Source: Mustelus asterias (lineage: Eukaryota). From it: a stretch of DNA of 64,000 bases. The position numbers and the translations under genes are program-made. Below the pieces are notes generated by a model that worked only from the letters and a program-made list of their open reading frames with translations, was not told where the DNA came from and did no database searches. Each line of letters opens with the position of its first letter. The first letter of the stretch is position 1. Below, piece by piece: positions 4,295-61,156 of the stretch. The DNA is taken from NCBI RefSeq assembly GCF_964213995.1, contig NC_135823.1, positions 49,600,001 through 49,664,000 on the forward strand, given 5' to 3'.

Positions 4295-4857
4295 CTGCAA
4301 TGACCAACGTATCAGGAGTTAAGAACAAGGAACAGTACAGAACAGGAACAGGCCCTTCGGCCCTCCAAACCCACGCCGATCAAGTTGTCCTATCTAGACC
4401 AACGGCCTGTATCCCTCTATTCCCCATCTGTTCATGTGTCTATCCAGGTAAGTCTTAAATGTCGATAACATATTTGCCTCAACCACCTCACTTAGTTGAA
4501 AACATAGCAGATAAATAAACACTGGAAATACTTCCACCGGAGCAAAGAAACCAAGAGAAGATTTAACTGAGCTCATTAAAATTACAATGGGAAATATTAT
4601 TTCCTCTAGTGGTCCCACCAAACAGAAACATAATAATGACCAGATAAGCTGCGCTTTTGTGATGTTGATTGAGGGGTAAATATTGGTCCTGGACAGGGGG
4701 AATAATGTCCCTAATCTTCTAAATAGTTCCATTGGATCTCTGACATCCATCCAAGGATAGTCATGATGCGGAGATGCCGGCGTTGGTCTCGGGTAAACAC
4801 AGTAACAGTTTTAACAACACCAGGTTAAAGTCCAACAGGTTTATTTGGTAGCAAATA

Positions 4858-4894
4858 CCATTAGCTTTCGGAGCGCTGCTCCTTCGTCAGATGG
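4858..4894 (-). ncRNA. Minimal type I hammerhead ribozyme motif
   Basis: Minus strand ccat-CTGACGA-a-ggagc agc gctcc-GAAA-GCTA-atgg. Confidence 0.78.
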
Positions 4895-4944
4895 AGTGGA
4901 AATCTGCTACAAATCTGTGCCCTGTTTGAGAGCAGATTTCCACT

Positions 4945-4981
4945 CCATCTGACGAAGGGGCAGCGCTCCGAAAGCTAATGG
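4945..4981 (+). ncRNA. Minimal type I hammerhead ribozyme motif
   Basis: ccat-CTGACGA-a-ggggc agc gctcc-GAAA-GCTA-atgg. Confidence 0.75.
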
Positions 4982-5509
4982 TATTTGCTACCAAATAAAC
5001 CTGTTGGACTTTAACCTGGTGTTGTTAAAACTGTTACTTTATCCATCCGAGGAGCCAGATGAGGCCTCAGTTTAATGTCTTATCTATAAGTGGTGCAGCA
5101 CACTCTCAGCACTGCACTGGAGTGCCAGCGTCGATTTTTCTGCTCAGGTTTCTGGAGTTCATCTTGAACCCACGATCTGATTCAAAGGTGACAGTGCTGC
5201 CCCCTGGGTTACACAGAGGGTCACAGCTAGAGACCATGACAACTTTTAAAAGCAAATTGGATGAAAGTGTGAAGCAGAGGGAGATACAGGATTAGGAGGA
5301 AGTAGCAAAGCAGGCGGAATTAGCTCTGGATCACTTCAATAAAGAGTCAGCAGGGACACGATGGACCAAATGGCCTACATGGATCATTAGTTTATTTTTA
5401 TATTTGCTTGTGAAGCGCTGAATACCAGTACTGTGTAACTCAGAACGTTAACAAGTTCTTTAGCAAACAATTAATGCTGAAAGATACCTTCATTTAACAA
5501 CAGAACAAG

Positions 5510-5585
5510 CACACACGCACACACGGACGCACGCACACACACACACACGGACGCACACACACACACACACACGGATGCACGCACA
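5510..5585. repeat. Compound (CA)n/(CACG) microsatellite
   Basis: Directly visible. Confidence 0.9.
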
Positions 5586-5632
5586 TGTACATGAAAGATG
5601 GAGAGAAGAAAAGAGGAAATTTGTAAAAGCAC

Positions 5633-5734
5633 CTGCTTGAATGGGAACATTTGGGTGAAGATTTCATAGTGACTCACAGCCACAGGCCCGGCTCCCAAAA
5701 TACACAACACGTCCAGGTTCTTCCGCTTCAGATA
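5633..5734 (-). CDS. CRYM: CRYM-like exon 4
   Basis: YLKRKNLDVLCILGAGPVAVSHYEIFTQMFPFKQ (Rossmann GxG loop); cag/gt boundaries, 102 nt. Confidence 0.95.
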
Positions 5735-58242: not shown

Positions 58243-58650
58243 AAGCCGCCATATTGTGTGGGTCAGACATCTGGTCGCCAGTGAGCCGCCATATTGTGTG
58301 GGTCAGAGATCTGGTCGCTGATGAGCCGCCATATTGTGTGGGTCAGAGATTTGGTTGCTGATGAGCCGCCATATTGTGTGGGTCAGAGATCTGGTCGCTG
58401 ATGAGCCGCCATATTGTGTGGGTCAGAGATTTGGTTGCTGATGAGCCGCCATATTGTGTGGGTCAGAGATCTGGTCGCTGATGAGCCGCCATATTGTGTG
58501 GGTCAGAGATTTGGTCGCTGATGAGCCGCCATATTGTGTGGGTCAGAGATCTGGTCACTAGTGAGCCGCCATATTGTGTGGGTCACGGATCTGGTCGTCA
58601 GTGAGCCGCCATATTGTGTGGGTCGCGGATCTGGTCGCCAGTGAGCTGCC
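58243..58650 (+). repeat. Tandem array, 10 x 40 bp, each unit containing GCCGCCATATTG (YY1-type motif)
   Basis: Unit gagccgccatattgtgtgggtcagagatctggtcgctgat; motif starts at 58245 and every 40 nt through 58605. Confidence 0.95.
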
Positions 58651-59210
58651 GCTGCCGTCGAGAGGATGAGGTCGGTGAAGGGAATGAATTCTGCGCTCGC
58701 GAACCTGGTGGTAAGTATCTCGATCGGTATCTGCGCCAAGGGACAGGTGATTTACTGCCGGACAAAAGGTCCTCGGCCCGGTGTCATTAGCACCACAAAC
58801 GGGGAATTGCCGGTGACCCCGGTGAGGAGCCGGCCGCTGCGGCCTAAGGCGCTGCCCGGAGTTAGAGCGGCCGCTCGGAGCCTCAGCGCCTTCCCTCCCT
58901 CCCGGCTGGGACTCGGCCCTGAACCGACCCTGATCCCCAGTGTCTCCATTCCGGGTGGGAGGCCGGTCACCGGCAGAGTTGGTGGAAGGGGGTTGGTGTT
59001 GTGAGGTTATCGAAGGTCATTCCCACCCAGAGACTCCAAGCTCAGTGCGAGCAGCCAGAAACCCGCAATCCTCCCTCTCCCACAACCTCTGCTACAAAGC
59101 GATGCGTTATAAAACGCACTGCTATATTCCCGCAATCACTGACTGCAGCTCGTCGCCATGTCGGCTTTTGACATTGCAAAGGTTATTCTGATATAACACC
59201 GCGAGCTGCA
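58640..59210 (+). promoter_or_regulatory. CpG island with probable first exon of an unidentified plus-strand gene
   Basis: CpG-dense; consensus donor CTGGTG/gtaagt after 58710; ATGs at 58666 and 58684 are in frame with the donor (phase 0). Confidence 0.6.
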
Positions 59211-59815
59211 CAGTCTTACTGACAGGGCCTCATGTTTTATATTCCTAATTTAAGTGATTATTTCGGGATGTCGGGGGAGGGAATTCTACATTCACCAACA
59301 GTGTTGGGTGTCTTTATAGTATTTGTTAGGTTGACAATTCGTCAATAGATGTAGTTTGTCATTTTCACAGTCACTTCACTGCAGTGTTAGTGTAAGCTTA
59401 CTTGCGACTAATAAATAAACTTTAAATTTAATCTTCCAATCTAAATTTTGCTCTGCATCGGCAACACACACGAACATATGAATTAAGAGCAGAAGTAGGC
59501 CCTTTGGCCCCTCTAGTCCTGCTCTGCCAGTCAATAAGATCACGGATGATCTGATTGTGGTCCCAACTCCACATTCCCACCAACCCCCGTGTTCAATAAT
59601 CTATCTACCTCTGCCTTAAAAATGTTCACTGACCTTGCATCTGCACAAGAGAGTTCCAAAGACTCATGACCCTCTGGGAGAAAGAAAATCTTCTCATCTC
59701 TGTCTTAAATGGGAAACATGATGTGGAGATGCCGGCGTTGGACTGGGGTAAACACAGTAAGAAGTTTAACAACACCAGGTTAAAGTCCAACAGGTTTATT
59801 TGGTAGCAAAAGCCA

Positions 59816-59852
59816 CACAAGCTTTCGAGGCTCTGAGCCCCTTCTTCAGGTG
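59816..59852 (-). ncRNA. Minimal hammerhead motif
   Basis: Minus strand cac-CTGAAGA-a-ggggct cag agcctc-GAAA-GCTT-gtg. Confidence 0.7.
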
Positions 59853-60598
59853 AGTGGGAATTCTGTTCACAAACAGAACTTATAAGACACAGACTCAATT
59901 TACATGAATAATGGTTGGAATGCGAATACTTACAACTAATCCAGTCTTTAAGAAACAAAACAATGGGAGTGGAGAGAGCATCAAGACAGGCTAAAAAGAT
60001 GTGTATTGTCTCCAGACAAGACAGCCAGTGAAACTCTGCAGGTCCACGCAACTGTGGGAGTTACAAATAGTGTGACATAAATTCTGATTCTAGGATCGCA
60101 TGATAAAGACTCAGGAGGAAAAAAGCAGAAATATTTATGTGAAATAGTGTGACATAAACCCAATATCCCGGTTGAGGCCGTCCTTGTGTGTGCGGAACCT
60201 GGCTATCAGTTTCTGCTCAGCGCAGAGTCGCGGAGCAGAAACTGATAGCCAGGTTCCGCACACACAAGGACGGCCTCAACCGGGATATTGGGTTTATGTC
60301 ACACTATTTCACATAAATATTTCTGCTTTTTTCCTCCTGAGTCTTTATCATGCGATCCTAGAATCAGAATTTATGTCACACTATTTGTAACTCCCACAGT
60401 TGCGTGGACCTGCAGAGTTTCACTGGCTGTCTTGTCTGGAGACAATACACATCTTTTTAGCCTGTCTTGATGCTCTCTCCACTCCCATTGTTTTGTTTCT
60501 TAAAGACTGGATTAGTTGTAAGTATTCGCATTCCAACCATTATTCATGTAAATTGAGTCTGTGTCTTATAAGTTCTGTTTGTGAACAGAATTCCCACT

Positions 60599-60635
60599 CA
60601 CCTGAAGAAGGGGCTCAGAGCCTCGAAAGCTTGTG
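60599..60635 (+). ncRNA. Minimal hammerhead motif
   Basis: cac-CTGAAGA-a-ggggct cag agcctc-GAAA-GCTT-gtg. Confidence 0.7.
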
Positions 60636-61156
60636 TGGCTTTTGCTACCAAATAAACCTGTTGGACTTTAACCTGGTGTTGTTAAACTTCTTAAATGGGA
60701 AACCCATTTTTAAACCGTGTCCCCTAGTTCTAGTCTCTCCACCATGTCAAGTCCTCTCAGGATCAGTAAGGTTCCAATAAAGATGCTAAACATCCAGCTC
60801 AACTCCATCTTTATTACTAGCACAAAAAATTAAGAATCACAACACACAGATGGGCTTTATTGCAAAGGGACATTGTATACAAAATCAAGGAATTTTTGTT
60901 GAGTTTGCCCAAGGCGCTGCTCAGGTCACATTGGAATGTTGCACACAGTTCTGAACACCTTGTTATAGGAATGATAATACCTTGGAAAGGAGACAGTAAA
61001 GATTCAATTGGAAAGTTTAAGGGGCATCGAGCCGAGATTTAAATAGTGACTGTCTGTTTCTGGTTGCCAGGTCAGTAATGAGTGAACATAGACTCAGTTA
61101 TCATTAGAAGAAAAGGAAGTTAGAAATTACTTTACACTGAGGTTCATGAAGAAAAG

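Follow-up and report, generated by a model that had tools for sequence, protein, structure and literature searches.

Head-to-head Penelope-like insertions in a shark genome: a symmetric target site, a near-fixed target-site duplication and a tail on one of two arms

In endonuclease-bearing Penelope-like elements (PLEs) of the Neptune and Nematis types, one open reading frame (ORF) codes for a reverse transcriptase (RT) followed by a GIY-YIG endonuclease with a CCHH motif, and the two domains are joined by a CX2-5CxxC linker that Penelope and Poseidon lack (PMC8557442). According to the same source, these elements are often heavily 5'-truncated, occur as partial tandems or with an inverted 5'-truncated copy, and have tandem or inverted pseudo-long terminal repeats (pLTRs) containing a hammerhead ribozyme, with an optional tail of 30-40 bp on one end and a target-site duplication (TSD). 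The origin of the tandem and inverted structures and of the tails is named there as an open problem. The insertions described here lie in a 64,000-nucleotide stretch of the genome of the shark Mustelus asterias (assembly GCF_964213995.1, contig NC_135823.1, positions 49,600,001 to 49,664,000; the window), together with further copies from the same genome. Their architecture, which the preliminary description of the window had taken to be undescribed, is already known, since the inverted pLTR, one-sided tail and TSD appear in PMC3846280 and PMC8557442 and the minimal hammerheads in PMC4209133. What appears to be new is a symmetric target, a TSD geometry of 12-13 bp, a counted one-tail rule and a coupling between the two arms. 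The symmetric target, the near-fixed stagger and the counted one-tail rule were not found in searches of the openly accessible Penelope literature.

The Penelope families of Adineta vaga likewise possess an inverted pLTR, a 31-bp tail on one pLTR, a TSD of 8-10 bp and palindromes at some inversion junctions, but the main text of PMC3846280 describes few copies and gives neither a counted one-tail rule nor a target motif. For the Anolis Poseidon element PAc, in vitro work has identified two internal RT start sites that bracket the tail, nicking and extension of both strands, and a predicted protein dimer, and ribozyme cleavage was dispensable for insertion (PMC11167929). PAc differs from the shark element in clade and in its preference for ATT. 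Its two starts are 111-118 nt within the ORF, whereas the shark tail stops at the ATG, and the main text of that paper does not deal with inverted insertions, TSD geometry or target symmetry. The minimal type I hammerheads of PLEs share the sequence CUGANGA, an extra base before stem II, a G10.1-C11.1 pair, GAAA, a palindromic 15.2-16.2 and the absence of loop 3, and form many subfamilies with compensatory changes; they number thousands per fish or frog genome, and sharks go unmentioned in the main text (PMC4209133). In sequence and predicted pairing the shark motif matches this published form. The non-LTR retrozyme, which consists of head-to-tail tandem hammerhead repeats with no coding DNA (bioRxiv 10.64898/2026.07.22.740005), was considered and excluded, as the shark arms are head to head and run into an ORF.

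The shark copies are truncated insertions of a Neptune-type PLE into (C)TG-N16/17-CA(G) sites, with a TSD of 12-13 bp and a tail on one arm, and were probably made by a protein dimer that nicks both strands and primes reverse transcription twice. The window insertions are 5'-truncated copies of a young element. A copy elsewhere in the genome (L174) retains the full ORF of 892 aa (RT plus GIY-YIG), whose ATG immediately follows the tail, and this ORF bears out the Penelope-like origin proposed in the preliminary description. A Pfam scan detected RVT_1 (E 1.4e-9) and GIY-YIG (E 0.0014, short of Pfam's cut-off). In an alignment of 89 homologues, the catalytic Y, G, R, H, E and N columns of GIY-YIG are conserved, the CCHH residues C797, C801, H837 and H843 are each kept in 86-88, and the linker C754-X4-C759-xx-C762 is kept in 85. 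By the motif definition in PMC8557442, the CX4CxxC linker and CCHH motif place the element with Neptune and Nematis. The closest named proteins come from sharks (80-93% identity), in agreement with the host that had been supposed, followed by those of turtles, echinoderms, ticks and amphioxus. When the same genome was searched with the protein, 91 of 101,411 candidates were scored, and since all 91 are 96-100% identical and most are free of stops, the family is young and large.

Three sets of copies were used for counting. The survey covers 1.304 Mb of this one genome in 13 segments at round-number positions, window included. The second set consists of 49 loci on contig C1 found with a 23-mer from the ribozyme; a head-to-head arrangement of two matches was the reason for including 24 of these, and selection was independent of tail, TSD and flank. 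The third, targeted set was picked by similarity searches. In the survey the family occupies 2.7% of the DNA and contributes 127 3' ends, which by extrapolation gives about 100,000 one-tail hairpins genome-wide, so the abundance that had been proposed holds. Among the first 100 matches listed for the ribozyme 23-mer, there were 26 minus-then-plus pairs within 3 kb. Insert sizes are continuous from 95 bp to >5 kb, up to full length, with a median of 270 bp and 21 of 36 at 350 bp or less; one tabulation of lengths spanned 95-2697 bp. Contigs from four RNA runs have loose ends at both of the end-points described below; expression level, strand and cleavage are not readable from such contigs.

The target of these insertions is symmetric, a feature that the preliminary description overlooked and that is the most informative of all. 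Target counts were restricted to one-tail pairs with a TSD score of at least 9 and a TSD length of 10-15 bp, which retained 33 of 41 survey pairs, 28 of 32 from C1 and 21 of 34 from the targeted set; the rest, including satellite-borne copies, were excluded. The pattern (C)TG-N16/17-CA(G) flanks 79 of these 82 insertions, compared with about 8.5% of random positions (TG-N16/17-CA in 32/33 survey, 28/28 C1 and 19/21 targeted insertions). A spectrum of spacings computed without prior expectation peaks at 16 (57) and 17 (22), and every other bin holds 11 or fewer. Both half-sites show one profile, CTG(G/T)(C), with full CTG and CAG on both sides in 35 of 82 targets and on at least one side in 73. 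The four hairpins and the solo arm in the window all match this target, as do 13 of 19 solo arms with a TSD. Because the motif sits beyond the TSD, away from the element, it cannot derive from the element ends.

The TSD has a nearly constant relation to this motif. TSDs of 12 or 13 bp account for 63 of 82 insertions, and for 60 of 79 the called TSD equals the spacing minus 4 or exceeds that value by one, which fits nicks 2 nt 5' of each CAG. A TSD score of at least 9 was obtained for 37 of 41 survey pairs versus 2 of 150 swapped-flank controls, and the TSDs are 62% A+T against a background of 57%. In PMC8557442, TSD length is described as variable and set by a second nick after target-primed reverse transcription, and Neptune and Naiad are said to favor microsatellites; the shark element differs in its TSD length and in its target, a split palindrome (CTG-N16/17-CAG) in mixed sequence with no microsatellite bias. 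Empty sites could be seen in a host repeat that carries the target (a 22-mer with 5880 exact matches), where the site is unbroken in 26 of 30 fetched copies. The other four carry the element at the identical base, three with the tailed arm and one with the untailed arm at the nick, and a second 12-bp copy of the TSD was found within the fetched DNA for two of the four. Reuse of the same sites by independent insertions was observed in abundant host repeats at L210, L058 and L185, at L226 and L228, and at L212 and L223, indicating that the element systematically interrupts particular positions of other repeat families. At L173 and L186, several PLE hairpins are clustered inside satellites of 25-36 bp, and one pair among them has no tail on either arm. 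A metagenome scan intended as a cross-species check of the target gave 0 matches, and the target is known from one genome.

The two arms of a pair end differently at their 3' sides. As the preliminary description had proposed, there are two fixed end-points: the 127 survey ends cluster near the ATG and about 35 nt upstream of it. The extra sequence forms a tail, which had been put at about 38 nt; the tail is present, and its measured length is 30-46 nt, mostly 32-42 nt. Exactly one tail is found in 37 of 41 head-to-head survey pairs (33 of 37 without the four from the window, p 1e-6), in 30 of 32 pairs of the C1 set, including 29 of 29 with a clear TSD, and in 30 of 34 of the targeted set. The assignment of the tail to the shorter, inverted arm did not hold: of 30 unequal pairs that could be classified, 16 have the tail on the longer arm and 14 on the shorter. 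The 45 unpaired survey ends comprise 24 tailed and 21 untailed arms.

All four TSD-flanked head-to-head insertions and the one solo arm reported for the window are present. Their parts are as follows.

4758..5040: insertion 1, 283 bp; tailed antisense arm on the left, 22-nt centre, untailed sense arm on the right
4745..4757 and 5041..5053: TSD of insertion 1, 13 bp with 1 mismatch
4741..4742 and 5056..5057: left TG and CA of the insertion 1 target, TG-N17-CA before insertion
4862..4890, minus strand: minimal hammerhead in the tailed arm of insertion 1
4949..4977, plus strand: minimal hammerhead in the untailed arm of insertion 1
9478..11551: insertion 2; short tailed antisense arm 9478-9851, long untailed sense arm 9850-11551
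9465..9477 and 11552..11564: TSD of insertion 2, 13 bp
9461..9462 and 11567..11568: left TG and CA of the insertion 2 target, spacing N17
9854..11248, plus strand: ORF part of insertion 2, open for 464 aa, the 3' part with RT core, CX4CxxC linker and GIY-YIG with CCHH
9572..9600, minus strand: minimal hammerhead in the tailed arm of insertion 2, one core-adjacent change
11461..11489, plus strand: minimal hammerhead in the untailed arm of insertion 2
54478..54803, plus strand: solo tailed arm of a second subfamily, hammerhead 54675-54705
54466 (TG) and 54817 (CA): target of the solo arm, CTG-N17-CAG, with a 7-bp partial TSD
55497..55750: insertion 3, 254-bp hairpin with arms of 103 bp and a centre of 12 nt
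55592..55620 (minus) and 55661..55689 (plus): hammerheads of insertion 3
55484..55496 and 55751..55763: TSD of insertion 3, 13 bp; TG at 55480, CA at 55766
59718..60688: insertion 4, 971-bp hairpin with arms of 456-465 bp and zero mismatches between arms
59819..59849 (minus) and 60602..60632 (plus): hammerheads of insertion 4
59703..59717 and 60689..60703: TSD of insertion 4; TG at 59701, CA at 60705 (N16)

The arms of insertion 2 overlap by 2 nt at their junction, and those of insertion 4 are joined at a natural 5-bp mini-hairpin of the ORF. Two of the hammerheads have decay changes: 9572-9600, which reads GAAAGTTT, and 55661-55689, where the change is in stem II. The TSDs, previously given as about 13-15 bp, were called as 13, 13, 13 and 15 bp; the last is probably 13 bp plus 2 nt in common with the element end. 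At the ORF end, each arm of insertion 4 has an insert of about 61 nt (60326-60386, mirrored at 60065-60125), flanked by a 17-nt duplication; a further copy (L002) shares this insert, which is thus a variant of the source.

The arms of a pair come from the same source. In 35 pairs (one poorly aligned pair of 36 was dropped), the arms agree at 522 of 550 subfamily-diagnostic sites, compared with a proportion of 0.48 after shuffling. In 13 young pairs, 36 of 50 variants shared by the arms occur in other copies and 20 of 30 variants private to one arm do not, which argues for a single source and not for later conversion. Homogenization after insertion is not favored as an explanation: divergence between arms (155/5656) is not below that between TSDs (8/459), and the nonsynonymous-to-synonymous counts were 13:13 for shared and 11:6 for private variants, small numbers from copies chosen for intact ORFs. 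An arm's nearest neighbor was its own partner in 16 of 24 cases, a test that is weak alone. The inner ends are coupled as well, falling within 25 nt of each other in 20 of 35 pairs against a null of 5.5; for pairs with an arm of >150 nt, inner ends lie within 35 nt in 7 of 15 (null 1.3, p 5e-5) and 7 of 22 (null 2.1, p 0.003). Among the equal-armed copies is a 4.9-kb near-perfect palindrome at L180:2592-7470; each of its arms is about 2.4 kb long, the private differences number 4, and the TSD is 12 bp. Junctions between arms are blunt, overlap by 1-6 nt or contain short filler, and a few lie on natural mini-hairpins; divergence from the single reference inflates the apparent filler. Strong microhomology as a general means of joining was rejected because the effect is modest.

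A scan of both strands for CTGAnGA-stem II-GAAA-NNTH closed by stem I returned exactly the nine minimal hammerheads that had been proposed, all inside arms and none elsewhere in the window, where Rfam at its gathering threshold gave 0 hits. Compensatory changes across subfamilies were likewise borne out by 41 distinct motifs, drawn from 68 matched of the 127 ends: position 1 of stem I is C-G in 23, U-A in 14 and U-G in 3, and position 4 of stem II is G-C in 36 and A-U in 2. These changes are a few subfamily-level events and not 41 independent ones. The predicted fold of a single L174 arm forms the hammerhead stems, and that of a whole hairpin puts the ribozyme core fully in duplex. Inversion automatically yields an antisense copy of the ribozyme, which is a by-product with no sign of any role. 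An intact core is present in 78 arms, of which 27 end 0-20 nt upstream of that core; 3 of 5 long tandem copies end there too, suggesting that transcription starts at this place, and such a start would account for the common 250-bp size. Three further ideas were rejected. Arms show no visible pile-up at the ribozyme cut (by eye, about 2 of 30 listed core-less ends from 99 examined, a qualitative count, and 0 of 5 long tandem copies). A G-A immediately upstream of the ribozyme, considered as the mark of a copied RNA cap, proved to be an allele of a subfamily (4039 matches versus 34 for a control variant). A conserved stable fold of the tail region was not obtained, with z-scores from +0.26 to -1.86 and alternative stems.

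These features can be brought together as follows. Two nicks, one per strand, would be made by a protein dimer about 2 nt 5' of each CAG and 12-13 nt apart, each leaving a 3'-OH from which reverse transcription is primed; the symmetric site and fixed stagger suggest two endonuclease domains on opposite strands, and the outward direction of the arms from both nicks is that expected of two cDNAs primed at these places. One priming would occur at the RNA start site next to the ATG and give the tailed arm, and the other about 35 nt upstream and give the untailed arm. One start site per subunit would produce both the one-tail rule and roughly 1:1 solo arms, the latter by loss of either cDNA (24:21). 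A single RNA may be copied twice: the second RT would displace the first cDNA and afterwards switch to that cDNA's 3' end, a course that would yield the many equal-armed hairpins with loops of 0-20 nt. The many 250-bp hairpins likely arise from the copy of the region in the 5' untranslated region, by run-off at the RNA 5' end a short way upstream of the ribozyme. Coupled ends and shared variants make one RNA copied twice the simplest arrangement, but this is speculative, with about even chances of being right. In its strictest form the system would resemble a dimeric restriction enzyme coupled to two RTs, which recognizes the split palindrome CTG-N16-CAG, makes a fixed staggered double nick of 12-13 nt and copies one RNA twice from starts 35 nt apart, which is possible though we would not wager on it. 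If so, the inverted pLTR, one-sided tail, TSD and second-strand synthesis would all come from one concerted reaction.

Several points weigh against double priming by a dimer. The reading is drawn from genomic copies of one genome, and two sequential nicks of fixed geometry fit the symmetric target equally well. The in vitro precedent comes from Poseidon, which is of another clade and cuts at ATT, and no difference in start site between strands was seen there, so that a pairing of one proximal with one distal start is not shown by that work (PMC11167929). The motif is missing from 3 of 82 targets and from 6 of 19 solo arms with a TSD. Four of 41 survey pairs have tails on both arms or on neither, although three of these have weak TSDs and may not be single events. 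The fourth, in the survey segment of C18 (67870-68014), has two tails and a 14-bp TSD; one of these tails reaches 43 nt into the ORF, where a rarer start site may lie. One of the 35 pairs (C2:93658) combines arms of two subfamilies, for which a second RNA or later conversion occurs, and short equal arms also fit two RNAs that share a start site.

The last two points lead to the alternative that survives best, in which the same dimer makes the same two nicks but a separate RNA is reverse-transcribed by each subunit and the cDNAs are linked through host end-joining; the arms would match because one active source locus usually supplies both RNAs. The chimeric pair and the blunt, overlapping (1-6 nt) or filler-containing junctions speak for it, and the 27 of 78 inner ends just upstream of the core could give equal short arms without a shared RNA. 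Long arms, however, still end equally (954, 807 and 750 nt with loops of 3-14 nt, and 2.4 kb at L180), well above the permutation nulls, and independent RNAs offer no obvious reason for one proximal and one distal start. This alternative is rather unlikely.

Less probable still is self-priming, in which a single cDNA snaps back and copies itself and the endonuclease trims one tail (PMC3846280, PMC8557442); for Adineta vaga, inversions were explained in this way, possibly with an antisense template (PMC3846280). Near-perfect hairpins in 33 of 65 pairs, junctions on natural mini-hairpins (insertion 4, C2:23212 and L173) and overlaps of at least 2 nt in 5 of 15 filler-free young junctions, versus 15% by chance, are consistent with it. 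Most junctions are non-palindromic, however, and 14 of 30 unequal pairs have a tail on the short arm only, where copying of an untailed long strand could not supply it. Untailed solos are as frequent as tailed ones (21:24), and the symmetric target is not predicted. The original proposal of retro-hairpins resembling miniature inverted-repeat transposable elements (MITEs), read as a family that spreads as units and whose antisense copy regulates the ribozyme, draws on the small insert sizes and the covarying stems but is largely refuted, and very improbable, because the two junctions tested, represented by 27-28-mers from insertions 1 and 4, have a single occurrence each in 3.68 Gb, sizes vary continuously up to full length, only 12 of 36 pairs retain two intact cores, and the hairpin is predicted to bury the core in duplex.

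In LINE-1 twin priming, the second target strand primes on the element RNA and an inversion results. LINE-1 inversions are not known to duplicate the 3' end and have variable TSDs, whereas both arms of the shark element start at the 3' cis-element, where two fixed positions are used. Two inversions that are LINE-1-like, with no overlap between the inverted and the direct piece, were seen at C15 61480-62408 and C9 58981-60018, and no clear TSD was found for them.

With dimer nicking and double priming as the probable reading, the genomic record fixes the geometry of the reaction, namely the target, the nick positions, the stagger, and two starts with one use each, and intact young ORFs are known. 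If nicking and priming of both strands at a defined site does occur, it would depart from the sequential-nick LINE model and be of interest for insertion tools. For annotation, the approximately 100,000 short MITE-looking palindromes in this genome are retrotransposition products.

Other structures were seen near PLE copies. A near-identical multi-copy unit at 19 loci, mostly on small contigs (L009-L027; about 600-1610 in L009), contains the tailed end of this PLE, a fragment of an older PLE and, between the two, a CpG-rich stretch that is promoter-like and has CCAAT boxes; the unit looks like a duplicated gene promoter and not separate insertions. At L177:7200-9999, long ORFs resembling the polyprotein of an LTR retrotransposon adjoin two PLE insertions. 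The window also holds inverted-repeat pairs unlike PLE arms, at 22403-23565, 53707-56661, 11768-13219, 16723-18193, 61936-62038 and 6490-6590, which are probably oppositely oriented pieces of short or long interspersed elements (SINEs or LINEs) or small palindromic repeats.

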